Assembly: GCA_963729715.1 (NCBI GenBank)
Contig: CAVSPA010000016.1
Location: forward strand, 28,064-92,063
Source: an uncultured delta proteobacterium
Lineage (GTDB): Bacteria; Desulfobacterota; Syntrophia; Syntrophales; UBA2185
Direction of reading: 5' to 3'
Length of the DNA: 64,000 nucleotides
The notes under the pieces: generated by a model
What the model was told of the DNA's origin: nothing
The model's input: only the letters and a program-made list of their open reading frames with translations
Databases searched by the model: none
In this document: positions 7,329 to 47,366 of the stretch, piece after piece
Numbering within the stretch: the stretch's first letter is position 1
How the letters are laid out: every line of letters begins with the position of its first letter
Translations under genes and position numbers: made by a program

Positions 7329-7421
7329 TCATGCTGATAGATTTTCAGGCAATTGCCCTCTATGTCGGTATCGGGACCATCGTTGGAGCCGCTTAATAAT
7401 TACAAAGAGGAGCGAGCATTT

Positions 7422-8447: not shown

Positions 8448-8457
8448 AAGAAGATTT

Positions 8458-15794: not shown

Positions 15795-16547
15795 TCACCG
15801 ACTCCGGGGAAATAATTTTGATGTCGTTATCCCGGCCTTTGCGAGACGAAATGTAAAAGCCGTCAAAAGACATTCAAGACCATACTTCATGCTCCGCCTG
15901 AAGTTGATCGAAGAAGCTTCCGCAAAGTATTTTGTGGGGCAGCTGACTTCGGCTATGGTATGTCCGAACCAGATGATCTGAGCCAGCATCTGATTGTCAA
16001 ACACAAAATCGTCGGAATTTGCGTCTATCGGCAGCTCCTCCAACAGCTGCCGCGAAAAGGCCCGATAGCCTGTATGGTATTCAGAGAGCTTCGCACCCAT
16101 GAGAATGTTTTCCGCAAGCGTCAAAAATCGATTGGCAACATATTTCCAGGGCGGCATCCCGCCCTTCAGGGCATAACCTCCAAGTATCCTCGAACCCAAG
16201 ACACAGGAATAGAGACCATTCCCGATCAAAGCTGCGAGAGCCGGAATCAGCATAGGCGTATACTGATAATCAGGATGCACCATGATGATAATATCGCCTC
16301 CCCTTTCAAGCGCCAGTCGATAACATGTCTTCTGATTTGCACCGTAACCCCGGTTGCAATCATGAACACACACCTCCACATTTGGGAGGCTCTTCGCAAT
16401 TTCGGCAGTATCATCCTGGCTGGCATCATCGACAAGTATAATCATATCCACGATTCCCTCGGCCATTACTTCGTTATAGGTTTTTTGGAGGGTCTGCGCA
16501 GCATTATATGCGGGCATGACAACTATGACTTTTTTCCCTTTAAACAT
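15795..16547 (-). CDS. GT2 glycosyltransferase, dolichol/undecaprenyl-phosphate sugar synthase (DPM1-like)
   Basis: VVMPAYN, VDDASQD, NRGYGANQK, HPDYQY, VLGSR, GYRAFSR and FDNQML. Confidence 0.85.
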   Translation of the reverse strand: MFKGKKVIVVMPAYNAAQTLQKTYNEVMAEGIVDMIILVDDASQDDTAEIAKSLPNVEVCVHDCNRGYGANQKTCYRLALERGGDIIIMVHPDYQYTPMLIPALAALIGNGLYSCVLGSRILGGYALKGGMPPWKYVANRFLTLAENILMGAKLSEYHTGYRAFSRQLLEELPIDANSDDFVFDNQMLAQIIWFGHTIAEVSCPTKYFAEASSINFRRSMKYGLECLLTAFTFRLAKAGITTSKLFPRSR

Positions 16548-16663
16548 TGCGTTCTGGCCACCTTTAATATTTTGTGCAGGTTATGCTGACTACCAATCTT
16601 TCATCTGCCAGGATCTGCCGCTACCCGGCGCATAGTCGACACGGGAAATACTGCGATTTCATA

Positions 16664-18487
16664 TCAGCGATAAATGGCCTTCCCCTGGACAGACTTCAGA
16701 TTATTAGCGGCAGCAGCATAAGAGGGATTGATTTTCAGTGCCTCTTGAAAATGTCCCATTGCCTCCTCAGTCCGCCCCACGCTTGCCAATGCCAGGCCCA
16801 GATTGTTATGGGTCACGGCGTTGTCGCTGTCAATTTTCAGGGCTTTTTCGTAATAGCCTATGGCTTCTTCCATCTTCCCCAGCCCGGCCAAAGCGCCGCC
16901 CATATTGCGGTTGGCGTATACATAGTCAGGTCTAATTCGCAAAGCCTCCTGAAAATGTAAAATCGCCTCATCAAACTTCCCTTTGCCGGCCAAAGCTACG
17001 CCCAGATTGTTGTGCGTTGTCTCATCATCTTCTTTTATTTTCAATGCTTCATGATAATAAATTATCGCTTCATCTGTCTTCCCCTGCCCTGCCAGGGCAA
17101 CACCCATATAAGAATAGGGCCCCGCGTATTCAGGCTCTAAGCTTATAGCATATTTAAATTGATAAATGGCCTCTTCATATTTCCCCAAGCCTGTCAAAGA
17201 GATTCCGAGATTGTAATGGGCACGGGAGTTCATTCCGGTCACCCGCAAGGCATGTTCGAAGAGCGTTACACTGTTCTGCCAGTAGTGAACCTGTACGACA
17301 CTACAAATCATTAAACCCACGATCACTGCGCCTGATGATATGGCGAAGATAATCTTCCGCCGCGGCAATCCCCGGAGGAGATCAGGAATGCCCCAGGCAA
17401 TAATAATAAAAAGACCGATCATGGGAATATAGGCATAACGGTCGGCCATAGCCTGCTTGCCCACCTGTATCAGCCCGATGACAGGCACAAGGGTTCCCAG
17501 ATACCAGAGCCATCCCGTGAGTGCATACCGGTATTTGCGGATCCCAAGGACCGCAAGGCTGGATAGAACGAAGAGCAGCAAGACAGCTCCAATTATCGGC
17601 AACGCACCAAATTTCTTCGAATACGGATAAAAGACGGCGAGGTTCTCGGGCCAGAACATCATCCAGAGATATTTTGCATAGGATACTACTGCATTGGCCA
17701 TGCGGTCTGGGAGAGGCAATTTATCAATGGAAATAGTTACGTCCCCGCGAAAGCTCGAGAGGAATGTCGCTATACCGACGACGGCTGCGAGAATGAAGAG
17801 CGGTATCTTTTCAAAGACGAGACGTGGAAACATCTTCCACCCAGTGAGACGTCCCAACGGCCAGTAATCCAAGAGCAGCAAAGTAAAGGGAAATGTGACA
17901 ATCATCGGTTTGGACATTAATCCTAAGGAAAATGCCATGAGGATGAGAAAGTACCTGTATCGCGTCGGACGCTCCAGGTAATAAGTATACGACCACATAC
18001 CGGCAAACCAGAAGAACGTGCATAATACATTCTTCCGTTCCGAAATCCAGGCAACAGATTCCACATTCAGGGGATGAACAGCAAAGAGCGCTGCCACAAG
18101 CGCACTCTTCCATACAGCACCGCTCATGCGCTTCATTACTATATAGAGCAGTATGGAATTCGCGATATGGAAGATCACGCTCGTCCAATGATGCCCGCCC
18201 ACCCTCGAACCGAAGAACTGATAATCCAACATGTGCGAAACCCATGTCAGGGGATGCCAGTAGCCCGTATGGACATCTTGCAGCGCCCACGAAAGACTGC
18301 CCCACGTCAATCCGGCTTTGACATAAGGGTTTCCCGATATATAGTCTATGTCATCGAGGGAAATGAGGCCGTAATGCTGCACCGGCCAGTATGCAACAAG
18401 AACAGCAACCGCAACCAAGATACATATGAATAGATCCTGATATTCGCTGAAATAATTATCTGCGTGTCCAGCCCTGGTTGACGGCAT
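16664..18487 (-). CDS. TMTC-like protein: GT-C membrane glycosyltransferase domain + C-terminal TPR array
   Basis: LDDIDYI..N, YWHPLTW.S, HHWTSV.FH, LFAVHPLNVESVAWISERK, SKPM, ADRYAYIP, then about 6 canonical TPRs (AHYNLG, THNNLG). The start is uncertain (ORF track 18610; ATG 18487 preferred). Confidence 0.8.
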   Translation of the reverse strand: MPSTRAGHADNYFSEYQDLFICILVAVAVLVAYWPVQHYGLISLDDIDYISGNPYVKAGLTWGSLSWALQDVHTGYWHPLTWVSHMLDYQFFGSRVGGHHWTSVIFHIANSILLYIVMKRMSGAVWKSALVAALFAVHPLNVESVAWISERKNVLCTFFWFAGMWSYTYYLERPTRYRYFLILMAFSLGLMSKPMIVTFPFTLLLLDYWPLGRLTGWKMFPRLVFEKIPLFILAAVVGIATFLSSFRGDVTISIDKLPLPDRMANAVVSYAKYLWMMFWPENLAVFYPYSKKFGALPIIGAVLLLFVLSSLAVLGIRKYRYALTGWLWYLGTLVPVIGLIQVGKQAMADRYAYIPMIGLFIIIAWGIPDLLRGLPRRKIIFAISSGAVIVGLMICSVVQVHYWQNSVTLFEHALRVTGMNSRAHYNLGISLTGLGKYEEAIYQFKYAISLEPEYAGPYSYMGVALAGQGKTDEAIIYYHEALKIKEDDETTHNNLGVALAGKGKFDEAILHFQEALRIRPDYVYANRNMGGALAGLGKMEEAIGYYEKALKIDSDNAVTHNNLGLALASVGRTEEAMGHFQEALKINPSYAAAANNLKSVQGKAIYR

Positions 18488-18671
18488 CTCTATTCCACTA
18501 CGGTTATTAATCCTGCCACCATATACTAAATTACGGGCACGATGGCGAGGGTTTTTGCTCTCTGCCTCCGTCCACGGCACAGTAGACGGAGCCGCAGGAA
18601 CGATGTTCAAGGATCATAATCTTATGAATTTCGATTGTAAATCATGGATTGGATATGCTACATATCCAGTG

Positions 18672-18796
18672 CAAATTGAATTCGGTAGCGAGCGCATCCT
18701 CCGCAGCTTGCTGCGGGGTAAGCGAGCGAATGACGAACGATAGTGTTCCTTAAGAATCGAAGATTCTCCGCAGCTTGCTGCGGAGGGCTTCAAATT
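18672..18796. repeat. REP/MITE-like element with two palindromes
   Basis: Two copies of CTCCGCAG-CTTG-CTGCGG(G/A)G at 18699 and 18766, AGCGAGCG repeated twice, and CAAATT at both ends (18672, 18791). Confidence 0.7.
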
Positions 18797-18854
18797 ACCA
18801 TTCTTTAATAACAGAGCCATTCCTAAGAGAAATCCCTGCGAGGATGGTTGCACT

Positions 18855-19952
18855 ATGCTGAACAATAAGACCGTTGCCGTTGTTATCCCTGCCTACAATG
18901 AAGAAAAACAGATCATTCACGTGATATCGACGATGCCGGATTTCGTAGATCGCATCATAGTGGTCAATGACTGTTCCACGGACAAGACCGCCGCAGCTGT
19001 TTCTGATTATATGACAAAACATGATACTTCCGCAGAAACCGTGTTTAAGAGACATAGGCCCGCGCATACCAAGTATAACCAGGCGGAGGTCGTCCTTCAT
19101 GAGATGGCGGAAAAAGAGATTGAATATTATATTCCTTCCGAAGTGGCAAACAGCAAACCCGAATCCGACAGGATCATACTCATTAACAATTTGATAAATG
19201 GCGGCGTAGGCGCCGCCATCGCAAGAGGATACAAATGGTGTCTTGACCATCAGATTTTTTGTACTGCCGTAATGGCCGGCGACGGACAAATGGATCCCGC
19301 GGAACTGGACTCCATCTGCCGTCCCGTGATTGATGACGGCATCGACTACGTAAAAGGGAATCGCCTCATCCACCGGAGTGCATGGCTGGTCGTACCGAAG
19401 ACAAGATATATCGGAAATGCCGTTCTTTCGATACTGACAAAGATAGCCTCAGGATACTGGCACGTCTCAGATACCCAATGCGGATATACCGCCATTTCAT
19501 TAAACGCCCTACAGGCCATCAGGATTCACGATATCTATCGCACTTACGGCGTGCCGAATGATATCCTGGTCAAACTGAATATCGCTCACTGCACGGCCAA
19601 AGAGGTAGGCATCAAGCCCATCTATAACGTAGGCGAGCAATCAAAGATGAAGGTCTCCAAGGTTATTCCGAAAATCTCCTGGCTCTTGCTTAAATCATTC
19701 TTCAAGCGGCTGTGGATCAAGTACCTACTGAAAGATTTTCACCCACTTTTTCTATTGTATCATTTTGCCTTTTTGCTCGGCATCATCGCAATTCCCTACG
19801 CAATCAAAATCGCCGGCATCGTTCTTTTCACCACAGATAGTGTGTCTCCGCTGACGATGCTGGCTTTTGCTTTTCTCTTTATCAGCTCTTTTCAGTCCCT
19901 CCTCTTTGCCATGTGGATGGACATTCAAGATAATGAAAGGTTGTATAAGTGA
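18855..19952 (+). CDS. GT2 polyprenyl-phosphate glycosyltransferase with two C-terminal TM helices
   Basis: [44 protein letters not shown]; hydrophobic C-terminus of GtrB/DPM-synthase type. Confidence 0.85.
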
Positions 19953-19956
19953 TGCT

Positions 19957-21573
19957 ATGAAGAACCGTAAAGATACTGCTTTTCCAAATGTGGCGGTCAT
20001 AGGCACAGGCTACTGGGGCAAGAATCTTGTCAGAAACTATGCAGAACTCGGCGCACTCAGGCTGATCTGCGACAAGAGCGAAACACTGCTCGCCGAGTTT
20101 AGGAAACGGCATCCTCAAATCGAGACATGCCTGGCTCTCAATGACGTCCTCGGCAGAGCAGATATTGCAGGAATCGCCATTGCCACACCGGCGGAGACCC
20201 ATTTCACTCTGGCAAGGGAAGCTCTCCTCGCGGGAAAGCACGTCTATGTTGAAAAGCCCCTTGTCCTCCTCGAGAGCCAAGCCGTCGAGCTGATCAATCT
20301 CGCAGCAGAACAGAGACTCACACTGATGGTCGGACACCTTCTCCAGTATCATCCTGCTTTCGTCAGGCTAAAAGAACTTGCTGCTGCAGGGGATCTCGGC
20401 AGGATCAACTATATCTATTCCCACCGTTTAAATCTCGGGAAGATCAGGCGGGAGGAAAACATCCTTTGGTCTTTTGCACCTCATGACATATCCATGATTC
20501 TCGCCTTGGCCGGAGAAGAGCCCGAAGGCGTCTTGGCAACCGGCGGAAACTACCTTCACAGAAAAATTGCCGATGTAACCACGACCCACCTTGAATTCCC
20601 GTCCGGCTTAAAGGCCCATATCTTTGTATCATGGCTTCACCCTTTCAAGGAACAGAAGCTTGTTGTAGTGGGCGAGCGGAAAATGGCGGTTTTCGATGAC
20701 ACGAGACCCTGGAATGAAAAGCTTCTCATCTATCCGCATGAGATTAAGTGGCGAAACTACATCCCTGTGCCGTCTACTGCCACCCCGGAATATGTCGATG
20801 TGACGGAGATGGAGCCCCTGAAGCTGGAATGTGAACATTTTCTCAATTGTATTACGACGGGCCAGACGCCTCTCACGGACGGACGGGAAGGACTGCGAGT
20901 GCTCATGGTTCTCAATGCCGGCCAGCGGTCTTTGAACGACTGCGGCAGAAAGGTTGAGATCAAACCTTCATCGGCAGGGAATGATGTTGCGCCATCCGGC
21001 CATATCGGGGACAACAGGAAGTACCAAGTCCATCCTACTGCGATTATCGACGATAATGTCTATATCGGAGAAGGCACCAGGGTATGGCATTTCTCCCACG
21101 TTCTTCCGGGGGCTGCCATCGGCAGCAATTGCAACATCGGCCAGAACGTTGTCATCGGCCAGGATGTGGTCATAGGAAACTCCTGTAAAGTCCAGAACAA
21201 TGTTTCCATATACAAAGGCGTCACTCTTGAGGACAACGTCTTCTGCGGACCGAGCATGGTGTTTACGAATGTCTTTAACCCCCGCGCCCATATCAGCCGC
21301 ATGAGAGAATTGAAACCCACGCTGATCAAGAGAGGCGTTACACTGGGGGCCAACTGCACTATTGTGTGCGGTCATACTGTCGGTCGATCCGCATTTGTGG
21401 GCGCCGGCGCCGTCGTAACTAAGGATGTGCCCGATTATGCCCTCATGATGGGCAACCCGGCCAGACAAACCGGGTGGATGTGCGAATGCGGAGAAAAGCT
21501 TCCTAAAAATCTGAAATGCCCCGCCTGTAAGAAAAGATATTCGGTATCGAAGAAGGGACTGCGGGTCGCGTGA
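19957..21573 (+). CDS. Fusion of Gfo/Idh/MocA NDP-sugar oxidoreductase (WbpB-like) and hexapeptide N-acetyltransferase (WbpD-like)
   Basis: GTGYWG, HVYVEKP and WSFAPHD. The C-terminal left-handed beta-helix reads VHPTAIID...WHFSHV...CNIGQN...FTNVFNPR...GNPAR, then CECG...CPAC. ATG 19957 follows the GT2 stop. Confidence 0.85.
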
Positions 21574-21587
21574 AAAGGTTTTCATCG

Positions 21588-22691
21588 ATGAAGGTGCCGT
21601 TTGTAGATTTGCAGGCACAATACACAGCCATCAAGAATGAGATAGACCAGGCCATAGCCGATGTCATCGGCAAGGTGGCATTCATTGGCGGTCCTTGCGT
21701 AAGTCGATTTGAAGAGGATTTTGCATCCTACTGCAGCGCCCGGTACTGCATAGGGGTGGGTAACGGCACAGATGCCCTGTATATCGCTCTCCGCGCTTTG
21801 GGTATAGAGCGGGGCGACGAGGTTATCACTGTTGCGAATTCCTTCATAGCCACCTCAGAGGCGATCACCATGACCGGTGCCAAGGTCGTCTTTGCGGACT
21901 GCGATCCGGAGACGTACAACATCGATACGGAACACGCATCCCGTCTCGTGTCACCGCGTACTAAGGCTATCGTCCCGGTCCATCTTTACGGGAGACCTGC
22001 AGATATGTCGTCCATTACCAATCTTGCCGGCAAGCACGGATTATTTATTGTCGAGGACGCCGCCCAAGCCCACGGGGCGGAGATCAATGGCCGGCGCGTC
22101 GGCGCCATAGGACATGCGGGATGCTTCAGTTTTTATCCTGCCAAGAATCTGGGGGCGTACGGTGATGGGGGCGCGATCGTCACCAACGACGAAGCATTAG
22201 CAACCAAATGCCGGATGATTGCCAACCACGGGCGGCTCAGCAAGTATGACCATGAGCTCGAAGGCGTGAACAGCCGGCTCGATACTCTGCAGGCAGCCAT
22301 CCTGAAAGCAAAACTGAAACATCTCGAAATATGGACGGAGGGCCGCAGGGCCGCAGCAGACTGCTACTGTGATCTACTGAAAGACAGCCCGGTCGTAACG
22401 CCCGTCGTGAGCCAAGGCGCAAGACACGTCTATCACCTTTTCGTTGTCCGTGTTAAGAACCGGGAAGCTGTCATGCGGGAACTAAAGAGCCGTGGAATCG
22501 AAACGGGCATCCATTATCCTATAGCATTGCCCAACCTTATGGCCTACCGGCATCTGGGGCACAGGTCGGAGGATTTTCCCGTTGCCACCGCATATTCACA
22601 GGAGATCCTCAGCCTCCCCATGTTTCCGGAAATCAGCAAAGATCAGCTTGAGTACGTCTGCAGTCAACTGAGGCATGCTACAGGCGGCTGA
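21588..22691 (+). CDS. DegT/DnrJ/EryC1/StrS NDP-sugar aminotransferase (WbpE-like)
   Basis: VPFVDL, NGTDAL, PVHLYG, EDAAQAHG, SFYPAKNLGAYGDGG, NSRLDTLQA, LSLPMFP. Alternative GTG start at 21570. Confidence 0.92.
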   Translation: MKVPFVDLQAQYTAIKNEIDQAIADVIGKVAFIGGPCVSRFEEDFASYCSARYCIGVGNGTDALYIALRALGIERGDEVITVANSFIATSEAITMTGAKVVFADCDPETYNIDTEHASRLVSPRTKAIVPVHLYGRPADMSSITNLAGKHGLFIVEDAAQAHGAEINGRRVGAIGHAGCFSFYPAKNLGAYGDGGAIVTNDEALATKCRMIANHGRLSKYDHELEGVNSRLDTLQAAILKAKLKHLEIWTEGRRAAADCYCDLLKDSPVVTPVVSQGARHVYHLFVVRVKNREAVMRELKSRGIETGIHYPIALPNLMAYRHLGHRSEDFPVATAYSQEILSLPMFPEISKDQLEYVCSQLRHATGG

Positions 22692-22705
22692 GGAGAAGGA
22701 CTTGT

Positions 22706-23689
22706 ATGTTGAAGATCGCCCAAATAGGTGTGGGTTACTGGGGACCGAACATTCTCAGAAATCTCGCGGAAAATAAGAGATGCCGTGTAACAGCCGCGGT
22801 CGACCTTGACCCCGAGAGGCGTGACTACGTCCACAGGCTGTATCCTGCAATAAAGGTCACCAACAGTATAGAAGATGTCCTAAGAGATCCGGAAACAGAC
22901 GCTGTCGTCATTGCCACACCGGTAGCTTCCCATTTTGATCTTGCCGTGAAGGCACTGGAAGCTGGAAAGCACATCCTGGTGGAGAAGCCGATGGCAAGAA
23001 GTGTGGCCGAAGTCGAAGAGATCGGGAAAATAGCAGACAGGAAAAAGCGGGTGGCTATGGCAGGGCATACCTTTCTTTTCAATGCAGCCGTCCGTTACGT
23101 GAAAGGCTTGATCGATTCCGGCGGTCTCGGAAATATCCGTTACATATACAGCCACAGGCTGAACCTGGGACGCATCCGGACAGACGTCGACGCCTTGTGG
23201 AACTTCGCACCCCACGACATCAGCATCATCCAGTATTGGCTGGACAATGCAACACCTGTATCCGTTGTAAAGCGCGGCGTCGATTTCATACAGAAAGGGA
23301 TCGACGACGTGGTCTTTATGAACATACTTTATCCGGACAGGGTCATGGCAAACATCCATGTGAGCTGGCTTGACCCCAATAAGATCCGTTCCATAACCGT
23401 TGTGGGTTCAAAAAAAATGGTGGTCTATGATGACGTTGCCGACAACAAAGTCGCTATTTATGACAAAGGAATAGACCGTATGGCAGTCCTCGGCAAGGAC
23501 ATGGACTATGATAACCAGCGTTTTCCCGCTTTCAATTACCGGTCCGGAGACGTTCTTTTGCCGAAGATAGATTTTCAGGAACCTTTAAAGGTAGAGATAG
23601 ATCACTTCATCGATTGTATAGAAAAGGGAATCCCCTGTATCACCGGCATCGAACATACAAAGAAGGTCGTCGCCATCCTCGCGTCATAA
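22706..23689 (+). CDS. Second Gfo/Idh/MocA NDP-sugar oxidoreductase
   Basis: [25 protein letters not shown] (shared with the 19957 gene), WNFAPHD; AGGAG RBS. Confidence 0.88.
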   Translation: MLKIAQIGVGYWGPNILRNLAENKRCRVTAAVDLDPERRDYVHRLYPAIKVTNSIEDVLRDPETDAVVIATPVASHFDLAVKALEAGKHILVEKPMARSVAEVEEIGKIADRKKRVAMAGHTFLFNAAVRYVKGLIDSGGLGNIRYIYSHRLNLGRIRTDVDALWNFAPHDISIIQYWLDNATPVSVVKRGVDFIQKGIDDVVFMNILYPDRVMANIHVSWLDPNKIRSITVVGSKKMVVYDDVADNKVAIYDKGIDRMAVLGKDMDYDNQRFPAFNYRSGDVLLPKIDFQEPLKVEIDHFIDCIEKGIPCITGIEHTKKVVAILAS

Positions 23690-23717
23690 GAGCGGGCGCA
23701 GGCCTGCATAGAGATCA

Positions 23718-27599: not shown

Positions 27600-27637
27600 C
27601 TCAGTTTGTCTATAGCTTCTTATATGAATCGCAACTT

Positions 27638-28705: not shown

Positions 28706-28722
28706 GTCGCATTATAATGTTT

Positions 28723-29424
28723 TTACTGTTTCTTGGCCAACAATATAAACCAGGGCATCCAGTATCTATTTATTTTCGTCGTCGGCATTGTGTCCGCAAT
28801 GATATTCTGAATCGTCTGAAGTATTGACGGCTTTTTGAAGTAGATGTTTACAAATCTAAAGTACTTGATTTCGAAGTTCAGCTCTTTTAGCATGGCTGTC
28901 AATTTCCTCGGATGGACGGGGACGTCGTTGGTGCTTCGATACCGTCGATACAGGAAGGCATATCTCATGAAGAAATATCTCTGGGGGTGATAGTAATTCG
29001 GCTCCATGCAGTAGAAATAGCCGCCCGGAACAATAATTCTACTCAATTCACTGAGCGAGTTCGCAAACGGAAATAAATGATGCAGTGTGGCAGGAAGGCA
29101 AATCATGTCAAAGCTTGCGGTCTTCAATGGCACCGCGAAGGCACTGCCGCATATCTTTTCATAGGGATAAAGAGAGAGTACCTGCGATGCAATGTCCAGA
29201 CCGAAGAGAGAAATATGATTATGCACGTACCTTGCCGCCAACGCCTGCGAGAATTGGCCAGAGGCGCAGCCGACCTCACAGATATGGGCTTTCCCGAATT
29301 GACCGATCACGGAATCAATCGGTTGGAGCATGGCGTCGAGGTCCTTTTCCAGATAGGGGGAATAACCGGAAGTGAACCTGTTGAAATATGCGAGATCTTT
29401 TTCCGAATATGATTTTTCCTGCAC
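28723..29424 (-). CDS. Class I SAM-dependent methyltransferase
   Basis: ICEVGCASG, GLDIA, SFDMI...LHH, IVPGG...EPN. Confidence 0.8.
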   Translation of the reverse strand: MQEKSYSEKDLAYFNRFTSGYSPYLEKDLDAMLQPIDSVIGQFGKAHICEVGCASGQFSQALAARYVHNHISLFGLDIASQVLSLYPYEKICGSAFAVPLKTASFDMICLPATLHHLFPFANSLSELSRIIVPGGYFYCMEPNYYHPQRYFFMRYAFLYRRYRSTNDVPVHPRKLTAMLKELNFEIKYFRFVNIYFKKPSILQTIQNIIADTMPTTKINRYWMPWFILLAKKQ

Positions 29425-29427
29425 CGA

Positions 29428-30879: not shown

Positions 30880-31912
30880 CCTTTCTCCCCACCAGGTCCC
30901 GTATATGACCCTCAATCATCTCCGGAATATAAGATAAACTTTCGACGAGCCTGTCCTTCTGCCCTCGCATATGTTCCTTGGACGGCGGCGTATCGGCCAT
31001 GGCAAGCGCTGCCGCAACAGCATCAGCGCCATAACCATAAACCTGCATTAGTCTGAACTCATCCGACAGAACCTTCATATTTCCGCATTCACCGGCCCAT
31101 GTCGACGCCAGCACCGATGGCACACCCATTAGCGCCGCCTCAGCACACATACTGGGGCTTTCTCCCACGACCAGCCGCGCAAAGGCCATAACATGATGCA
31201 TCCTGTCTATCCTGATGGCGATTGCGAATCTTCTGAGCGCCTCCGGAGGTGTAGTTTCCGTCGTCAAGACCACCTTCATTCTCAAAGAGAGCTGCTCTAT
31301 CAATCGAGTAGCGTCCTCCACACTGAATCCTTTTTCTCCCTGATCGTGGACGGCATCCCAGCGGACGAAGCGCACCACGGCATAAGGCTCCCCAGGATCA
31401 ATCCCTTCGCCTCTTACGAGTTCGGGATCCGGGGTAAATTCATCAGGATGCAAATAGCTCCATTCGTGAAAGCTGCGATAGCGGTAGTGACGCCTGCCAA
31501 AGTCTCTGGCAAACCACTCCGGCGTGAGAACCCTGTCGGCAAAGGGAAAGGCTATCCTGTTACTGAGTTCCGCCGTTTCTGTATCGGTCAGGGCAATGTT
31601 GGGAATGCCGAGCATACGAGATGGAAGTGACGTCGTTATACCGCCGATGGATAGGACAATATCCGGACGATAGTCCCGGAGAATCATTGTGAATTTAAAC
31701 CAGCGTTTTAATAACTCCTGCGCAAGGCCGATGCCCCTCTTCTGTTTAGATAAGCAGATATAGGGAATGCTGAAGAGATCAAGGAGCTGATGCGTAATAT
31801 CTTTATCACGCGTGACAATCATAAGCTCGTGGCCGTGTTCCTGCCACCTCTTAATCAACGGCCGGAAGAAATGCACATGCTTGGGATGCAGTATATCTAT
31901 CAAAAATTTCAC
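30872..31912 (-). CDS. DUF354-family protein (GT-B-like fold)
   Basis: IDILHPKHVHFF, RDKD...LL, DTE, E.SYLHP..F.PD, VGES.SM.AEAALMGVP. Confidence 0.78.
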   Translation of the reverse strand: MKFLIDILHPKHVHFFRPLIKRWQEHGHELMIVTRDKDITHQLLDLFSIPYICLSKQKRGIGLAQELLKRWFKFTMILRDYRPDIVLSIGGITTSLPSRMLGIPNIALTDTETAELSNRIAFPFADRVLTPEWFARDFGRRHYRYRSFHEWSYLHPDEFTPDPELVRGEGIDPGEPYAVVRFVRWDAVHDQGEKGFSVEDATRLIEQLSLRMKVVLTTETTPPEALRRFAIAIRIDRMHHVMAFARLVVGESPSMCAEAALMGVPSVLASTWAGECGNMKVLSDEFRLMQVYGYGADAVAAALAMADTPPSKEHMRGQKDRLVESLSYIPEMIEGHIRDLVGRKDV

Positions 31913-31917
31913 GGGAG

Positions 31918-32697
31918 CTACGTCTCCTTCACAGCCAATGCTACGAGACCCGAGCCGCTTTTCCGCGCTCGGTAAAATGAACCCAAGAAGCTGAGAAATA
32001 GCAGCAAAGGAAAAACCAATGCATAAAGACCCTTATTTCTTTCCTTCGCACCTGTTATCAGCTTGCTTATATCATTAGCCAACGTCTCCATAGTATTATA
32101 ATTATAGATACATGTTTTAACATGAAGCCCCCCTCCGATAAGAAGACGCGTCAATTCATCCTTTGTGTAACCCGCTCTCACATGCCCGTCAATATCCATC
32201 CAGTTTTCTCTTTTCCAGCCGAAGATGTTCCGTGTCAGATGCGGCACGTGCACAAGCAGATGGCCACCCGGTTCAAGGGCTTCATAAAACATTTTCACGG
32301 CGCCGAGATCGTCATCCAGATGTTCAAGCATATCCATTGAGATGACCAAATCAAATCTGCCTAATTCAGGAATTCTCATAGCGTCCATGGTAATAAATTG
32401 CATCTTCTTGAATCCCACTTTCTCGGCAATTTCGCTATTGACCCTGTTTTGATTTTCATCGAGATCGACACCAAAAACTTCAGCGGCGGGAAAGCGTCTT
32501 GCACAGGCAAGGGTAATCATACCCCGGCCGCATCCCGCATCGGCGATTCTGCGGGGCTCGGGAATTTGTTCCAGAAAAGGAAGGGTGGTGCGAGCGCGTA
32601 CACGAAGCCCTAAGATAGGCGCGCCAAAAAGTTTCACGTATATTCGTTCCAGCGGAGACAATCCCGGAGTCAGCGCTATTTCTGAACCAAATGGCAT
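31918..32697 (-). CDS. Class I SAM-dependent methyltransferase
   Basis: IADAGCGRG, FGVD, FDLVISMDMLEH, LEPGG...HVP, GHVR.GY. Confidence 0.85.
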   Translation of the reverse strand: MPFGSEIALTPGLSPLERIYVKLFGAPILGLRVRARTTLPFLEQIPEPRRIADAGCGRGMITLACARRFPAAEVFGVDLDENQNRVNSEIAEKVGFKKMQFITMDAMRIPELGRFDLVISMDMLEHLDDDLGAVKMFYEALEPGGHLLVHVPHLTRNIFGWKRENWMDIDGHVRAGYTKDELTRLLIGGGLHVKTCIYNYNTMETLANDISKLITGAKERNKGLYALVFPLLLFLSFLGSFYRARKSGSGLVALAVKET

Positions 32698-33893
32698 TAA
32701 TGCCCTCCCATAACTTCCGTTCTTCTTAACAGTGAGAGTAACACTCCGAGCCCACGGACCATCCAGCCGTTACACCAATGGAGCAGGGTGAACCGCTTGC
32801 TCAGGAATCGGCCTTTCTGATAGGTAAATTCTCCATCTCCTTTATAGAAATTCTGAAGACCCCAGAATGCTATGCGAAGAGCCATATCCCGGTCATCAGC
32901 CTTGGCAAAGGTCAGAATACCCTGGGCGGAACCGTGAACGTCATGTGGCATGACCTTATCGCTCGCCCACTTCGGAGCGCCGTTTGCGAGAAACAGGTTT
33001 TTCCTATAGAATTTCAGGCCGTGTTCATAGTAGTTCCGGAAGCGCCCGTCCCCTGTCGCATTTTCATAATCCAGATATGCATCCAGAATCATGCCCGTAT
33101 GATAGTTGTCATGGGCCACCAGGCTCTGCCTGGGATTCGTGGTATAATACCATGCTCCGTAGGAAGTTTGCAGGCGAGACACGAAGGAGAGAAGCTTTTG
33201 CGCCTGATCCAGAAGGAAAGTCTCACCCGTCAACGCGCCCACCTGAGCCATAAATGCCGCAGCCTGAGCATTAATATTTATCACGGCAAACCCTGTTTTC
33301 ATCTTTGGAACGTATGAGATGCATTTTTCCTCTTCAGTTTCGTGCAGCACTTCTAAATCAGATAGAATAAAATCAACAGCGCTCCGGGCAGTCATGAGGT
33401 AAGCCTCATTGCCAAGCAGGCGAAAGCCGTGTAAGAGAGCACCCCCGGCGATGACGGTAATGTAGCAATTGGGATAACCCGGCGGCTGGAAGAAGCCCGG
33501 GCTCTGCCAGGGATGATGGTAGCCCCAACAGCTGCCGTGATAATTTCCTTTCTCTGCCGAAGTATTTTCCATCAACCATCGCAGACAACTTTCCGCCCTT
33601 TGCCGGAAAGGCTGGACGGCATTCATGGAAAGCATATCCAAATTGGCCCTGGCAAATAGCGCCGGACTTTCCGAATTAATGCCCTTCCTTACAAGGAGAA
33701 CGGGCCGCAGATTCATAGGCGCCCGCATGACCGCCTGTGTCCAGATGAGGCGGAGCAGCCAGCTATTGAAAGATAAAGCGCGAACCAGCGGACTGTGAAG
33801 ACCGTCAAATTTGGAATAACCTACGTAACCCAAAAATTGAGCCCGGTCTAAGGCGACGGACAGAATTTTTTCAATTTCCCTGATATCGATCAT
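32697..33893 (-). CDS. Hypothetical (alpha/alpha)-barrel-like protein of glycan loci
   Basis: 398-aa ORF coupled to the downstream gene. WGYHHPWQS, YGAWYY, DNYHTG, DVHGSAQG and WCNGWM repeats suggest a six-hairpin toroid; function unknown. Confidence 0.55.
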   Translation of the reverse strand: MIDIREIEKILSVALDRAQFLGYVGYSKFDGLHSPLVRALSFNSWLLRLIWTQAVMRAPMNLRPVLLVRKGINSESPALFARANLDMLSMNAVQPFRQRAESCLRWLMENTSAEKGNYHGSCWGYHHPWQSPGFFQPPGYPNCYITVIAGGALLHGFRLLGNEAYLMTARSAVDFILSDLEVLHETEEEKCISYVPKMKTGFAVININAQAAAFMAQVGALTGETFLLDQAQKLLSFVSRLQTSYGAWYYTTNPRQSLVAHDNYHTGMILDAYLDYENATGDGRFRNYYEHGLKFYRKNLFLANGAPKWASDKVMPHDVHGSAQGILTFAKADDRDMALRIAFWGLQNFYKGDGEFTYQKGRFLSKRFTLLHWCNGWMVRGLGVLLSLLRRTEVMGGH

Positions 33894-33991
33894 TGATGAT
33901 CACCCATAGATGGGAACATAATATTTTCTCGAACATGATGCAAGGAAAGTAAGAACAGCGGGAACTCAAATATTTCGACCGCCCGCCTCGA

Positions 33992-35866
33992 CTACGGACA
34001 TCGTCTCTTGGTGAGTCCGGAACGGGATGCCACTCTGCTAAAATGATCGGATGTCCTGTAATCATTCTTCGCCCTGAAGGCTTCTGACAGCAACGAATAA
34101 GCGTTTAAAGTGTCTCCGCCTAAACGTATTGCACTTCGGGCCTGTTTGATGGCTGCAGCAGGATCTCCTTCGCGAAGGCAGATATGGCCAAGATTGACAT
34201 AGAAAAAGGCGGTGTCACGCTTGAGGGATATTGCTTTTTTCATTGCCAGCTCAGCCTCAGACGGCTTCTTTTTGAGCATCAGCAAGGCAGCTTTATTGTT
34301 GTAAAGATCGGTGTTATCAGGGAGGCCTGCCAAGGCTTTTTCAACGTAGATAATGGCATTCTCGTAATCGCCGCTTAAGAGATAATATTCCCCCAGCAGT
34401 TGATAGATTTTGAATTTCATCCTGACGTCCCATGACGGGGGTGAATTAAGCGCCTTCGTCAATTCGACATACGCCTCCGGAAAACGGCCGGCTTTCGACA
34501 GGGCCGCTCCGAGATTACCATGAGCCATCTCAAGACCAGGTGCTTTGCGGGCATTGTCCGTCCACAGGGATATTTCATTCTTAAGGACATCATTGTAGAA
34601 ATAAACATTCATGCCCATGATAATAATGATTGCCGTAACCGCAGACGATAGAACGAGAATAATCCTTCTTCTCTTTTCAAAGTAGGTCAGGGCGTAAACG
34701 ATGAGGATAGACAAAGGGACGAAAAAAAGCATCGCAGGAAGGTAATTCCGATGCTCGTAAATAATGCCAAGGGAAATAAACGATCCTTCAATTAAATGGT
34801 TCACGAAAAAGAAAATGATGCAATAGGAGATGAGGGGTCTCTTCCGGGAGATCAATACAGCCGCGGCCAGGATCAGCAATAGCACAATAACGGCAGCAAT
34901 GGTCGTCCAGGGGTCAAAGAGCGATTTTGAAATCTCCATATCATGAATCAACATCATCCTCGACGTGATGGGGTAAAGCAAAAGAGAAATATAAAAAATT
35001 ATCACCCGCGGCTGGGTCAACACCCTTTCCCACATCGTGAAGGGCCTGAATTCATCATAGCTTCCCGTGATCGTAGAAAAATCATAATACATAAGTCCAA
35101 TCGCCGGAACTAGAACCAGGGCGAAAAGGCATACCGCCCAATTCTTCTTTATGTGCTCAATTGTCACACCCTGAATGAGAAAAAGATCAAAAAGAAAGAG
35201 GCTTACGGGCAGCATGGCCGCGTTCTCTTTAGAGCCAAGAGACAATATGGCACAAAAAGCAGTTAAGACAAAAAAACCGACGCACTTCCATGTCCTGTCC
35301 GCCCTCCTCCCTTTCAGGTAGAAGTACATGGCCATGATGTAAAACATCGCCACCATGCTAGCCATCCTCTGCACAATGTAGGTGACGGCCATGACCTCTA
35401 CAGGATTAATCGCCCAGAACAGCGTGGCCAGAAGTGCTATAGAATAAGCATTCCGCTCATAGCGTCCTTCAAGAATGGGAAGCTTAATGGTATTGTAAAT
35501 GAAAAGGAATAGAAAAACGGAAGTTACATAATGAATGAAGAAGTTGACGACATGATACCAGAAAACATTCAACCCGTCGAAATAGTAGTTCACCGCAAAC
35601 GTAAAATATGAAACAGGCCTCTGCCACCTGCCGCCACCGGCTATACCGTAAAGGCTCTTCCCTATATCCTGCCAGGACAGGGTCTTTATCTGCACGCCGG
35701 CATTCTCAACTATATTTACATAATCGTCAAAATGCCATGAACAATCAAAACTGTTCGCATAGATCACTGCCAATATGAAAAACAGAAGCCCGGCGGCAAA
35801 CAGGGAGGGCCGCCATTTCGAGAGCGACAGTTTCATGTTCAGTTCAAAATCGTTTTCGTTATTCAC
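33992..35866 (-). CDS. TMTC-like GT-C + TPR protein (paralog B)
   Basis: FDDYVNIVEN, WQRPVS, YHVVNFFIH, FWAINPVEVMAVTYIVQR, SKENA, YEHRNYLP, LWTD, then TPRs (AHGNLG). Confidence 0.8.
   Translation of the reverse strand: MNNENDFELNMKLSLSKWRPSLFAAGLLFFILAVIYANSFDCSWHFDDYVNIVENAGVQIKTLSWQDIGKSLYGIAGGGRWQRPVSYFTFAVNYYFDGLNVFWYHVVNFFIHYVTSVFLFLFIYNTIKLPILEGRYERNAYSIALLATLFWAINPVEVMAVTYIVQRMASMVAMFYIMAMYFYLKGRRADRTWKCVGFFVLTAFCAILSLGSKENAAMLPVSLFLFDLFLIQGVTIEHIKKNWAVCLFALVLVPAIGLMYYDFSTITGSYDEFRPFTMWERVLTQPRVIIFYISLLLYPITSRMMLIHDMEISKSLFDPWTTIAAVIVLLLILAAAVLISRKRPLISYCIIFFFVNHLIEGSFISLGIIYEHRNYLPAMLFFVPLSILIVYALTYFEKRRRIILVLSSAVTAIIIIMGMNVYFYNDVLKNEISLWTDNARKAPGLEMAHGNLGAALSKAGRFPEAYVELTKALNSPPSWDVRMKFKIYQLLGEYYLLSGDYENAIIYVEKALAGLPDNTDLYNNKAALLMLKKKPSEAELAMKKAISLKRDTAFFYVNLGHICLREGDPAAAIKQARSAIRLGGDTLNAYSLLSEAFRAKNDYRTSDHFSRVASRSGLTKRRCP
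34669..35766. repeat. Direct repeat copy 1 (~1.1 kb) shared by the two tandem TMTC-like genes
   Basis: Matches 36633-37730 at offset 1964. 34779-35766 appears identical by eye; 34669-34760 has one mismatch, and there is a divergent patch at about 34761-34778. Confidence 0.92.
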
Positions 35867-35919
35867 GACATCTTCTCACACACACAGAAAATAGGAGAAT
35901 TGAAAGACCAAAAATCCGG

Positions 35920-37839
35920 TTATACACCGGTATGCAATGTCAATAATGGTTTATCACCTTCGCACGAAGAATCAGGCGCCTGCAGACTATTTGCGAGTCT
36001 GTAGAAATGATCTGCCGCTTTACGATCCTTTTTCATCCTGAATGCCTCGGAAAAGAGGCTATAAGGTTTTGAAGAATCTCCGCCGAGCATGAGGGCCTTT
36101 TGCGCCGCCTTGATAGCCTGGTCCGGCCGTCCCTCCTTTAACAAAATGCGGGCCAGGGTCAGGTGAAAGGCATATGAATTAGGCATCAGGGCAATCCCGA
36201 TCCCGATGAATTGTTCGGCATCGTTGAGGTGATTCTCTCTCACCTTGATCTCTGCCAGCCTGTTATAAACCGGGTGAAAGGACGGATCTATTTTCAGGGC
36301 TTCAAGATAGTGCATCATGGCTTTTTTATCATCGCCGTTTAGTATATAGTACTCTCCCAACAAACCATGGGTTTTGACTTTCGCCTTGATTTGATCAGCT
36401 AACGGAGATTCAAGCGCCCGCGTCAATTCCACAAAGGCATCAGACATACGGCCGTCAATAAAATAGGCCACCCCCAAATTTTGGCGCACGCGATGCAGCC
36501 GCGGCGTTTTTTCTAAATTGTCGCTCCACAGGGATATCTCATCCTTTAGAATATTATTCTGGATAAAGACCGACACCCCCATGATAATCATGACGGCCGT
36601 AATCACAGACGATAGGATCACAATCATCCTCTTTCTCTTTTCAAAGTAGGTCAGGGCGTAAACGATGAGGATAGACAAAGGGACGAAAAAAAGCATCGCA
36701 GGAAGATAATTCCGATGCTCGTAAACAAGCTCCAGAGAAACGAACGATCCTTCAATTAAATGGTTCACGAAAAAGAAAATGATGCAATAGGAGATGAGGG
36801 GTCTCTTCCGGGAGATCAATACAGCCGCGGCCAGGATCAGCAATAGCACAATAACGGCAGCAATGGTCGTCCAGGGGTCAAAGAGCGATTTTGAAATCTC
36901 CATATCATGAATCAACATCATCCTCGACGTGATGGGGTAAAGCAAAAGAGAAATATAAAAAATTATCACCCGCGGCTGGGTCAACACCCTTTCCCACATC
37001 GTGAAGGGCCTGAATTCATCATAGCTTCCCGTGATCGTAGAAAAATCATAATACATAAGTCCAATCGCCGGAACTAGAACCAGGGCGAAAAGGCATACCG
37101 CCCAATTCTTCTTTATGTGCTCAATTGTCACACCCTGAATGAGAAAAAGATCAAAAAGAAAGAGGCTTACGGGCAGCATGGCCGCGTTCTCTTTAGAGCC
37201 AAGAGACAATATGGCACAAAAAGCAGTTAAGACAAAAAAACCGACGCACTTCCATGTCCTGTCCGCCCTCCTCCCTTTCAGGTAGAAGTACATGGCCATG
37301 ATGTAAAACATCGCCACCATGCTAGCCATCCTCTGCACAATGTAGGTGACGGCCATGACCTCTACAGGATTAATCGCCCAGAACAGCGTGGCCAGAAGTG
37401 CTATAGAATAAGCATTCCGCTCATAGCGTCCTTCAAGAATGGGAAGCTTAATGGTATTGTAAATGAAAAGGAATAGAAAAACGGAAGTTACATAATGAAT
37501 GAAGAAGTTGACGACATGATACCAGAAAACATTCAACCCGTCGAAATAGTAGTTCACCGCAAACGTAAAATATGAAACAGGCCTCTGCCACCTGCCGCCA
37601 CCGGCTATACCGTAAAGGCTCTTCCCTATATCCTGCCAGGACAGGGTCTTTATCTGCACGCCGGCATTCTCAACTATATTTACATAATCGTCAAAATGCC
37701 ATGAACAATCAAAACTGTTCGCATAGATCAGTATCAGTATGACAAACAGAAGAAGAGAGGAAGAGACATATCGCCTCGCGCCCCCCATCTTCCATCTCAT
37801 AGTTAAGGTAAAGTCTTTATCGTGACCATTAATGAGCAT
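35920..37839 (-). CDS. TMTC-like GT-C + TPR protein (paralog A), first gene downstream of the pilin
   Basis: Same membrane-domain motifs as paralog B with a different N-terminal TM and TPR region. The start is uncertain by about 15 codons. Confidence 0.8.
   Translation of the reverse strand: MLINGHDKDFTLTMRWKMGGARRYVSSSLLLFVILILIYANSFDCSWHFDDYVNIVENAGVQIKTLSWQDIGKSLYGIAGGGRWQRPVSYFTFAVNYYFDGLNVFWYHVVNFFIHYVTSVFLFLFIYNTIKLPILEGRYERNAYSIALLATLFWAINPVEVMAVTYIVQRMASMVAMFYIMAMYFYLKGRRADRTWKCVGFFVLTAFCAILSLGSKENAAMLPVSLFLFDLFLIQGVTIEHIKKNWAVCLFALVLVPAIGLMYYDFSTITGSYDEFRPFTMWERVLTQPRVIIFYISLLLYPITSRMMLIHDMEISKSLFDPWTTIAAVIVLLLILAAAVLISRKRPLISYCIIFFFVNHLIEGSFVSLELVYEHRNYLPAMLFFVPLSILIVYALTYFEKRKRMIVILSSVITAVMIIMGVSVFIQNNILKDEISLWSDNLEKTPRLHRVRQNLGVAYFIDGRMSDAFVELTRALESPLADQIKAKVKTHGLLGEYYILNGDDKKAMMHYLEALKIDPSFHPVYNRLAEIKVRENHLNDAEQFIGIGIALMPNSYAFHLTLARILLKEGRPDQAIKAAQKALMLGGDSSKPYSLFSEAFRMKKDRKAADHFYRLANSLQAPDSSCEGDKPLLTLHTGV
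36633..37730. repeat. Direct repeat copy 2 (~1.1 kb)
   Basis: See copy 1. The translations are identical from IYANSFDCSWHFDD to NHLIEGSF. Confidence 0.92.
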
Positions 37840-37853
37840 CTATTTTAAATGAC

Positions 37854-37884
37854 AAAAAAGGGGTGAGGTATAACCCCCACCCCC
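37854..37884 (-). terminator. Intrinsic terminator after the pilin gene
   Basis: Minus strand reads GGGGTGGGG-loop-CCTCACCCC followed by T6. Confidence 0.75.
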
Positions 37885-37910
37885 TCGAGACATGGAAAGC
37901 ATATTAACAG

Positions 37911-38288
37911 TTAACTTCTTGTAATTCCGCCGTTCGCGTCAACAGTGAAGGTTGAACCGCCGCCGGAATGCTGCGTCGACATTTGAATACTGTTTATGGT
38001 ACCAGTTACCACGGTTATCGGCGTGTTACTGCTGAGTCTATAACCATAGGCCGATAAATCCGCTTCAGCAGCAATCGTTCCGCCTGGTGAATCGCTGTAA
38101 AAAGCCTGTGACGCCGTGTATGCATTCCTAACCGCTGAGTTTGCCGATGCGCTGAAACCCCTTGCCCTGTATGCAACGAACTGCGGGATGGCAATGGCTG
38201 CCAAGATACCGATGATAGCAATAACGATCATCAATTCGATCAGCGTAAAGCCCTTCTGTCCTCTTTTCTTGTAAAATGCACGAATCAT
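37911..38288 (-). CDS. pilA: Type IVa major pilin (Geobacter/Syntrophus-type N-terminus), 112-aa mature protein
   Basis: Basic leader ...KKRGQKG/FTLIELMIVIAIIGILAAIAIPQF with Glu5; no Cys. The AAAGGAG RBS favours ATG 38288. Confidence 0.95.
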   Translation of the reverse strand: MIRAFYKKRGQKGFTLIELMIVIAIIGILAAIAIPQFVAYRARGFSASANSAVRNAYTASQAFYSDSPGGTIAAEADLSAYGYRLSSNTPITVVTGTINSIQMSTQHSGGGSTFTVDANGGITRS

Positions 38289-38464
38289 CTTCATCTCTCC
38301 TTTCAATTTGCGCTTAGCATAAATATTTTAATGAGTCAATTTCAGTTTTTGGTGTAATCTGTTGCGATAAACTGATCTGTACTACCACCTCCTTTGTCAC
38401 AAAAATTATATTGTTCCCTTAATCATTGCATTGGAAATATCTGAATTACGTTTGCAAATTATAT

Positions 38465-38481
38465 AGCAATTACCATACCAA
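38465..38481 (-). promoter_or_regulatory. sigma54 (-24/-12) promoter of the pilin gene
   Basis: Minus strand TTGGTAT-ggtaa-TTGCT matches the TGGCAC-N5-TTGC spacing and sits in an AT-rich region about 180 nt upstream of the start. Confidence 0.8.
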
Positions 38482-46085: not shown

Positions 46086-46226
46086 GCTGGGATCAACGAA
46101 ATATTGCTGGGCCTGGCATTTCGTCAGTTCAAAATCACCTCGATGCCAAAATGCTGCTCGGGCTGCACGGAGAAATCCTTAGAATAAGCCTTGTAATTCA
46201 AGATTCTCTATATATTATAGTTATGA

Positions 46227-47366
<1,140 letters not shown>

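Follow-up and report, generated by a model that had tools for sequence, protein, structure and literature searches.

We analyzed a 64,000-nucleotide stretch of DNA (the window) from an uncultured deltaproteobacterium of the order Syntrophales (assembly GCA_963729715.1, contig CAVSPA010000016.1; G000:C16:28064-92063, G000 being the source genome). An island within it contains a type IVa pilin gene (pilA), two genes for GT-C glycosyltransferase-like proteins with tetratricopeptide repeat (TPR) tails, and a large set of sugar genes. We read this locus as a pilin O-glycosylation system fed by a lipid-monophosphate-linked amino sugar and put the probability of the whole chain at roughly 60%. That the GT-C pair glycosylates the pilin, taken alone, is the safer proposal and, judging from the sequences, probably correct. 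The logic and chemistry are already known in bacteria from TfpW, and the locus would be a variant of them. New here are the finding that the catalytic cores of the twin genes were repeatedly homogenized while their TPR tails stayed distinct, the clade-specific count of pilin linkage, and a co-fold of enzyme and pilin through their membrane helices.

Pilin linkage of the GT-C/TPR genes

All 18 genes named in an earlier note on this DNA (the original prediction) were confirmed in position and strand (Table 1). On the minus strand, pilA is followed after 71 nt by the genes for GT-C/TPR proteins 1 and 2 and then by nine closely packed tailoring genes (spacing, -55 to +17 nt), which run in the order of the table from the 398-aa protein to AsnB. 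These genes face a convergent plus-strand block that reads GT2 with two membrane helices, Gfo-acetyltransferase fusion, DegT, and Gfo; past the block lie the third GT-C/TPR gene and a DPM1-like GT2 gene. The arrangement was as predicted, and so was the lack of any Wzx, Wzy, WaaL, PglB, or PglC family match among the window proteins. The closest named homologues came from Syntrophales.

Pilin linkage was counted in all matches from 60 genomes of the order, in the best 80 of 333 matches from the genome collection (76 loci), and in 30 loci from a sample of the phylum Desulfobacterota. Five duplicate loci were removed, at least 1.2 kb of flank was needed on both sides, and pilins were taken to be up to 145 aa long. 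In the clade of proteins 1 and 2, hereafter the pilin-linked clade, a pilin gene was found within 1 kb in 57 of 88 cases and within 3 kb in 69. In the protein 3 clade, the respective numbers were 1 and 4 out of 27. A rough chance estimate for a pilin within 1 kb was <1%. The phylum sample, which was drawn evenly, showed a pilin in 11 of its 30 short loci, this locus included. One cultured carrier is Desulfonema magnum (locus L056).

A FastTree phylogeny of 182 sequences placed 116 members in the pilin-linked clade with a support of 0.999. The pilin was within 1 kb for 69 of them, at 1 to 5 kb for 16, and absent for 14, and 17 members were on short loci (85 of 99 scorable members within 5 kb). 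Relative to the pilin gene, the GT-C gene was convergent in 37, co-oriented in 29, and divergent in 1 of 67 cases. It thus stands behind pilA or tail to tail with it, and the adjacency survives inversion. The predicted conservation of the pilA adjacency therefore holds for the clade of the twin genes and fails for that of the third gene, which we dismissed as a core component of the pilin system because its clade is so rarely beside a pilin.

The mature pilin contains 14 Ser and 11 Thr (25 of 112 residues), has no Cys, and ends in Ser; these traits and the sigma54-type site ahead of pilA were verified as predicted. The sigma54 pattern preceded 23 of 39 related pilins, compared with 3.7% of random 400-nt windows. 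The composition carries little weight, as the Ser plus Thr share had a median of 0.21 in pilins adjoining such GT-C genes versus 0.28 here. A C-terminal Ser also carries little weight: it was found in just 7 of 89 such pilins, which ruled it out as a TfpO-like signal.

Further pilins and enzymes were observed along with these. The source genome encodes a second, MSH-like pilus operon (L001:2156-16220, contig C4) with a secretin, an AAA ATPase, an assembly ATPase, a platform protein, and a sigma54 activator; in it, a gene for a 138-aa pilin is followed directly by a GT-C/TPR gene of the same clade (44% identical) and then by minor pilins. Two orphan pilA paralogues, L008:7665-8042 (contig C5) and L009:8180-8557 (contig C4), differ from each other by about 3 residues. 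Both begin with the unusual FTTIEL, share 55% identity with the window pilin, and lack a GT-C neighbor; one adjoins an IS200 transposase. They are possible additional acceptors for the twin enzymes.

In seven loci (L106, L109, L120, L121, L124, L125, and L126), a VKOR-DsbA fusion gene comes after the GT-C/TPR gene, usually with a PMT-type GT-C behind it, and the pilins seen there have two Cys. A second, TPR-free GT-C family of the PMT_2 type stands beside the pilin/GT-C pair in 15 of 69 loci (L014:3010-4932 and 14 similar genes), and TMEM260-like genes also adjoin the pair (e.g., L113:2296-4050 and L119:14879-15931). These PMT_2-type and TMEM260-like neighbors may extend the glycan.

Fold, predicted pilin contact, and known relatives

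Structures were modeled with AlphaFold2 for protein 1 (predicted local distance difference test [pLDDT], 86.4) and for the membrane domain of protein 3 (81.4) and were compared to known folds with VIA-align. Both models aligned to STT3, protein 1 with a Z score of 21.3 (306 residues; root mean square deviation, 4.0) and protein 3 with 20.0 (321 residues; 4.6), in support of the predicted GT-C fold. The top 46 rows for protein 3 were all GT-C-fold entries, and the next row had a Z of 4.0. Other matches were AglB (Z, 19.3), ALG12 (17.4), Pmt2 (17.2 to 18.5; 17.2 for protein 1), and ArnT (16.4 to 16.9; 16.9 for protein 1). Because users of pyrophosphate- and monophosphate-linked donors score within a few Z units of each other, the donor type is not readable from the fold. 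Among the matches listed by Foldseek for the full-length protein 1 model there were only TPR matches; Foldseek returned nothing at an E value of <0.001 for protein 3, and searching PDB sequences with membrane-domain profiles gave no match. TMTC and TMEM260 structures were absent from every fold list, which excludes nothing.

When protein 1 was co-folded with the mature pilin, the score was 0.76; none of the three controls scored above 0.00. Among solved pairs, 116 of 157 attained this mark, as did 2 of 215 mismatched pairs; these counts are approximate since alignments were user-supplied. Contact agreement between runs was at least 94%, and the partner pLDDT was at least 79. The confident interface places pilin residues 1 to 19 on enzyme residues 10 to 26, 132 to 140, and 381 to 413, all in membrane helices. 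The model thus argues for pilin binding by the GT-C protein and supports recognition through the membrane helix of the pilin. The original prediction had the TPRs select the substrate, and the model does not support this: no confident TPR contact was seen in the co-fold, although its absence is not proof of none.

Residues D38, D39, R74, K204, E351, H363, and R364 were invariant across 101 homologues. All three window proteins have the DD motif in the acidic loop after the first transmembrane (TM) helix, and it was kept in 71 of 72 pilin-linked members and in 19 of 19 members of the protein 3 clade. The other motifs differ by clade. The pilA-adjacent pair has RP, KE, and EHRNY, and in its clade we counted RP in 71, KE in 59, [ED]HRxY in 72, and [ED]RxxY in 3 of 72 members. 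Protein 3 has WHP, SKP, and DRxxY, and its clade has WHP in 17, KE in 1, and [ED]RxxY in 18 of 19 members. The predicted TMTC-type motif series is therefore present but is divided between two clades rather than complete in each. The two clades are homologous (hhalign probability, 99.7).

The protein with the closest logic is TfpW, accession number AAM52060.1. This 11-TM GT-C enzyme of 646 aa has a DDX loop, ends in a TPR domain, and is encoded downstream of pilA (10.1101/2020.04.19.049825; PMC12369383). TfpW adds D-arabinofuranose (D-Araf) to pilin Ser/Thr residues, and the genes for its lipid-linked precursor are homologous to those of the mycobacterial decaprenyl-monophosphate-arabinose route (10.1101/2020.04.19.049825). 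The claim that no bacterial example had been characterized therefore falls, as TfpW itself is a pilin-glycosylating GT-C/TPR protein (10.1101/2020.04.19.049825). It was the only bacterial GT-C/TPR protein with a known acceptor found in the open-access literature. No paper on the pilin-linked clade was found in open-access text; most subscription journals and bioRxiv supplements were beyond reach, so it may be described elsewhere.

Like TfpW of the Pseudomonas aeruginosa/P. paraeruginosa group IV strains Pa5196 and PA7, the first enzyme is encoded directly behind pilA, is about 640 aa long, and is a multipass GT-C protein with DDX in the first periplasmic loop and a periplasmic TPR tail. The Ser/Thr O-glycosylation of pilin from a lipid-linked monosaccharide that is proposed here would also be alike. 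Unlike TfpW, YX6PFX7P occurred in 0 of 72 and 0 of 19 members of the two clades, with YX6P alone kept; YX6PX7P was found in 18 of 19 members of the protein 3 clade, and none of 389 homologues had Y-x6-P-x8-P at the position of the TfpW motif. Also unlike TfpW, the locus has two homogenized tandem copies, amino-sugar genes, DPM-like GT2s, and UPF0104. The window has no D-Araf genes (DprE1, DprE2, or UbiA-like), GtrA, or TfpX; the search for D-Araf genes covered the window, and in P. aeruginosa the D-Araf donor genes are unlinked. A homologue search from a sister-clade protein and cluster look-ups met no named TfpW. By analogy, the system would work like TfpW, but it is not shown to be TfpW, since YX6PFX7P is absent and the sugar genes differ.

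The animal O-mannosyltransferases of cadherins, TMTC1 to TMTC4, constitute CAZy family GT105 and take mannose from Dol-P-Man. Like them, the proteins described here have a GT-C domain of about 430 to 470 aa followed by TPRs, and a DD motif; RP and KE are shared by the pilin-linked clade, and [D/E]RxxY is shared by the third gene. Unlike them, they lack PF08409, DW, and SHKSY ahead of RP, the acceptor is likely pilin rather than cadherin, and nothing in the locus indicates mannose. TMTCs are defined by a membrane domain followed by TPRs, DUF1736 with DW, and motifs M2 (SHKSYRP), M4 (KE[TQ]xxT), and M7 (ERxxY) (PMC7801869). Full-length prokaryotic TMTC homologues, one of them deltaproteobacterial, were reported by Eisenhaber in 2021 (PMC7801869).

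DUF1736 (PF08409) had no above-cutoff match in the genome and none in 72 and 19 members of the two clades, and the P..L..DW pattern was found in 0 of 91 members; near the DW position, the pilin-linked clade conserves HD. No Pfam or NCBIfam family matched the membrane domain of the pilin-linked clade, and none of its 72 members matched PMT_2; relatives of protein 3 did so at an E value of <0.05 in 11 of 19 cases. Wzy_C and STT3 domains were absent from the three GT-C proteins; PF04932 matches were restricted to contigs C7 and C4, and PF02516 had none in the genome. The Atlas neighbors of the pilin-linked clade include PMT_2 clusters, at 0.98 and with the family on 30% of members, and also a chordate DUF1736 cluster, at 0.92 (189 of 256 features); this is a lead only. 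Kinship with TMTC-like proteins, as predicted, is thus suggested, and strict membership is not. By sequence, these proteins are TMTC-like and not demonstrable members of the TMTCs.

The GT-C/TPR open reading frames (ORFs) of the window encode 624 to 648 aa. Their family comprises 92,158 clusters at 50% identity and is found in 95 of 201 genomes of the phylum. JGI labels several homologues protein O-mannosyl-transferase and some PilF or TadD; the latter names probably stem from the TPRs. The source genome has nine paralogues, most of them distant from pilins. Three paralogues in tandem (L005:11651-17483, contig C5) and a fourth (L005:1431-3410) lie 10 to 25 kb from a cluster of pilN/O/P, PilY1, and minor pilin genes. 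No plasmid homologue was found. Five IMG/VR contigs (L167 to L171) carry a member of the pilin-linked clade with 33 to 37% identity.

Twin catalytic cores and distinct TPR tails

Codons 38 to 365 of the twin genes were 99.7 to 100% identical within a genome and 75 to 90% identical between genomes. This was true of all four genomes compared, G000, G007, G258, and G265, the last from another genus. The TPR tails of the two genes were only 38 to 42% identical within one genome, and they group by copy: first copies shared 60 to 80% identity, second copies shared 42 to 80%, and identity across copies was 36 to 43%. Thus, the duplication predates these species, and the cores were homogenized in each lineage. 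As judged from the sequences, this concerted evolution is most simply explained by gene conversion. In other lineages, four tandem pairs lack such homogenization (54 to 72% identity).

We ruled out an assembly artifact as the entire source of the 988-bp repeat: 4 of 4 genomes show the pattern, and one of them, a one-contig genome, retains residual differences. The assembler could have erased the last few differences between the cores. Coverage of the region by sequencing runs is thin and reveals neither expression nor operon structure. Contigs of several relatives stop at or just after pilA or within the GT-C gene (G029:C27, G260:C27, G262:C78, and G264:C70), as expected if a near-identical 1-kb repeat breaks assemblies.

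The twin genes are a natural domain swap, with one core and different TPR tails. They address what the TPR domain selects, a question common to TfpW and the animal TMTCs, and the locus is a compact, testable system for a second GT-C/TPR branch beside TfpW. The pattern would fit one donor chemistry with two recognition tails. Neutral conversion confined to the still-similar part would produce it as well.

Elsewhere in the window (61495-63810), mutS is spread over three or more separate ORFs (covering domains II, III, and III-V), which indicates that it is frameshifted or misassembled. A mismatch-repair defect from a broken mutS could promote gene conversion.

Sugar genes, proposed mechanism, and alternatives

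Genome-wide, no match was found to the STT3/PglB, Bac_transf (PglC/WbaP), or PF01943 Wzx models. The survey of the donor genes covered 69 related loci, each 12 kb or longer, with a PF03706 profile seeded from these loci. A PF03706-like gene was found in 24 loci and a homologue of either GT2 also in 24, with 14 loci having the two together; Wzx was found in 3. The predicted pairing of a DPM-like GT2 with UPF0104 thus recurs. There are two PF03706-like genes in the whole source genome. Other GT-C types (PMT_2, PMT, and TMEM260-like) were often neighbors in these loci. Orthologues of the 18855 GT2 (at least 72% identity) were detected in 7 of the 60 genomes; in six they lie no more than 15 kb from a GT-C/TPR gene, and in one at a contig edge. 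The genes in between vary by locus. The donor genes differ between lineages. Pilin glycans guard against pilus-specific phages in Pseudomonas (10.1101/150227), and such protection would explain the turnover of sugar genes.

Two known pathways resemble the gene set. Like the ArnA/B/C/D/E/F/T lipid A pathway, it combines a dehydrogenase, an aminotransferase, acyl transfer, a GT2 acting onto undecaprenyl phosphate (Und-P), a de-N-acylase, a small flippase, and a GT-C transferase; the 15795 GT2 matches ArnC, and protein 1 aligns to ArnT as given above. Unlike the window enzymes, ArnT lacks a TPR tail and has lipid A as its substrate, and this genome has an arn-like cluster of its own on contig C7. 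Like the Wbp/Vim linking-sugar pathway of Porphyromonas gingivalis, the locus has WbpB/E/D-like genes, an AsnB/WbpS amidotransferase, and a VimE-like deacetylase, all at the family level (PMC7468200). Unlike it, the window has no WbpA or VimA, and the VimE score is far under the cutoff. That pathway couples proteins by a sortase-type amide bond and not by a GT-C enzyme (PMC7468200). By analogy, the WbpB/E/D-, WbpS-, and VimE-like set suggests a 2,3-diamino sugar.

We propose the following mechanism, whose parts we rank, from the most to the least confidently inferred, as active transferases, pilin acceptor, donor loading by the GT2, decoration, flipping, and role of the twin cores. The GT-C enzymes would be active transferases, given their conserved catalytic-type residues, and would act on a pool of pilin waiting in the membrane. 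The Gfo, DegT, and acetyltransferase genes would make a 3-amino or 3-acetamido derivative of N-acetylglucosamine (GlcNAc), which the 18855 GT2 would put on Und-P. The DUF354, deacetylase, AsnB, and methyltransferase products may extend or decorate this sugar, and the UPF0104 protein may flip the lipid-linked form. Gene conversion would hold both cores to one donor, and the two TPR tails might differ in the sites or pilins that they serve, or in the step (addition of the first sugar or its extension). Protein 3 and the 15795 GT2 probably form a pair of their own, with a different acceptor.

Several observations weigh against this chain. In the linkage counts, 19 of 88 clade members had no pilin within 3 kb, the search pattern takes in some minor pilins, and the loci are best-scoring relatives from kin genomes, so the counts are not independent events. 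The interface residues of the co-fold vary more than other helix positions (entropy, 1.66 versus 1.26); because they are less conserved, generic hydrophobic packing is possible there. The predicted contact is a hydrophobic helix on a helix, and the controls are not stated to include a membrane helix. No PF03706-like gene was present in the fetched stretch of 45 of 69 loci. Of the 60 other genomes of the order, only 3 had the DUF354 tailoring block, and one of these carriers, G046 (92% complete), has no match to the pilin-linked clade. A uronic-acid product is not supported, since the locus has no WbpA and the sole UDP-sugar 6-dehydrogenase gene above the Pfam cutoff is split into two overlapping frames (G000:C10:167435-168812, beside a UDP-sugar epimerase/decarboxylase-like gene). 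Finally, two Wzy_C/WaaL-type genes and a WecA-like gene elsewhere in the genome could glycosylate the pilin instead.

The best-surviving alternative, which we regard as unlikely, keeps the GT-C pair as pilin glycosyltransferases but has the sugar block serve a different end, for example, a lipopolysaccharide decoration or an amino-sugar glycolipid of the GpgSDF/HexSDF kind. The pilin sugar would then come from elsewhere, for instance, as undecaprenyl-pyrophosphate-linked units from the ABC-type O-antigen locus on contig C4. An operon of a glycosyltransferase, a deacetylase, and a UPF0104 protein makes glucosaminyl phosphatidylglycerol in P. aeruginosa (PMC12713373), and the flippase activity of its UPF0104 member, GpgF, is unproven (PMC12713373). 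The narrow range of the DUF354 block and its presence in G046 also favor this alternative, as do the WecA, Wzm/Wzt, and Wzy_C genes on contigs C4 and C7. The top fold match, STT3, uses pyrophosphate-linked donors, but enzymes that use monophosphate donors score merely 2 to 4 Z units under STT3 and AglB. Against a separate product, the block is co-oriented with and closely spaced behind the GT-C pair, in the same order in four genomes of two genera (G258, G265, and L052 also carry the DUF354 block). The sugar sets next to the clade differ but repeatedly include a GT2 and a PF03706 gene, and the 18855 GT2 orthologues keep close to a GT-C/TPR gene in 6 of 7 genomes.

It is less probable still that the enzymes are broader envelope glycosyltransferases, with minor pilins, PilY1-like adhesins, or other exported proteins as acceptors and the major pilin incidental or one of several. 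The nine paralogues, mostly distant from pilins, and the very large size of the family agree with such a role. In many loci the gene sits between major and minor pilin genes, and the N-terminal helix in the predicted contact is common to all pilins. However, the pilin linkage is confined to one well-supported clade, and the window has no minor pilin or adhesin gene. It is very improbable that the proteins have a noncatalytic GT-C scaffold like that of PIG-U and act as pilin chaperones or assembly factors, resembling the accessory proteins TfpX/Y/Z in role: the confident contacts are distant from the DD loop, TMTC M7 is changed to EHRNY, DW is missing, and some homologues are named PilF/TadD (though probably due to their TPRs), but the acidic pair, RP, KE, and [ED]HRxY are kept in diverse members and sugar genes recur next to the clade.

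Returning to a glycosylating GT-C pair, we suggest a broader reading only tentatively and consider it more doubtful than sound. Desulfobacterota would have a branch of TMTC-like, non-TfpW transferases that know pilin by its membrane helix and use interchangeable lipid-monophosphate sugars; in this Syntrophales family, gene conversion would maintain one core in two copies with old, distinct TPR tails, and these would put one unusual diamino sugar on two acceptors or in two steps. If true, a large clade would gain an acceptor class, and TPRs would be swappable specificity modules.

Table 1. Features of the island by decreasing window position (SAM, S-adenosylmethionine; PLP, pyridoxal phosphate)
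Feature	Position	Strand	Evidence or remark
sigma54-type -24/-12 promoter site	38465..38480	-	upstream of pilA
Type IVa major pilin, likely acceptor	37911..38306	-	mature protein of 112 aa begins with Phe at 38249; start probably at 38294 or 38288
Terminator-like hairpin	37857..37886	-	between pilA and first GT-C gene; pattern match only
GT-C/TPR protein 1, pilin-linked clade	35920..37839	-	DD, RP, KE, HD, EHRNY motifs; AlphaFold2 pLDDT 86.4
988-bp segment, homogenized catalytic core	36743..37730	-	identical to 34779-35766
GT-C/TPR protein 2	33992..35866	-	catalytic core as protein 1; TPR tail 39% identical to that of protein 1
398-aa protein, GH88/GH127/C5-epimerase-like helical family	32697..33893	-	without a match in Pfam, NCBIfam, or PDB; Atlas 0.97, with families on fewer than half of the members
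SAM methyltransferase	31918..32697	-	
DUF354 protein, GT-B-like	30872..31912	-	PF04007 E 5e-20; MurG E 1.5e-5
Putative sugar deacetylase, remote VimE relative	29428..30915	-	NF053580 100 bits vs cutoff 440
SAM methyltransferase	28723..29424	-	
UPF0104/PF03706 membrane protein, candidate flippase	27638..28705	-	PF03706 E 2.7e-13; TIGR00374 weak
Divergent DegT-family PLP protein	26376..27692	-	
SAM methyltransferase	25655..26383	-	
AsnB-like amidotransferase (WbpS-like)	23718..25658	-	family match
Gfo/Idh/MocA oxidoreductase	22706..23689	+	best match UDP-GlcNAc 3-dehydrogenase, below cutoff
DegT-family sugar aminotransferase	21570..22691	+	family match
Gfo dehydrogenase + hexapeptide acetyltransferase fusion (WlbA/WlbB-like)	19867..21573	+	family match
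AglJ/PpgS-like GT2 and candidate Und-P sugar synthase, with two membrane helices at the C terminus	18855..19952	+	
GT-C/TPR protein 3, other clade, not pilin-linked	16664..18610	-	PMT_2 28.4 bits, above cutoff
DPM1-like soluble GT2	15795..16547	-	dolichol-phosphate mannose synthase 5mlz top in PDB (E 5.6e-9), ArnC next

A large ABC-transporter-type polysaccharide locus (L002-L003; G000:C4:76000-112000) contains many methyltransferases, a carbamoyltransferase, a second AsnB, WecA, and Wzy_C, and an ISL3 insertion interrupts one of its methyltransferase genes. Wzm/Wzt genes were also found elsewhere in the genome. In the window, queuosine genes (queD/E/C, a second 6-pyruvoyltetrahydropterin synthase gene with folE2, queA, and tgt) lie on both sides of the glycosylation island, at 7353-9153, 38779-39922, and 45045-47366.

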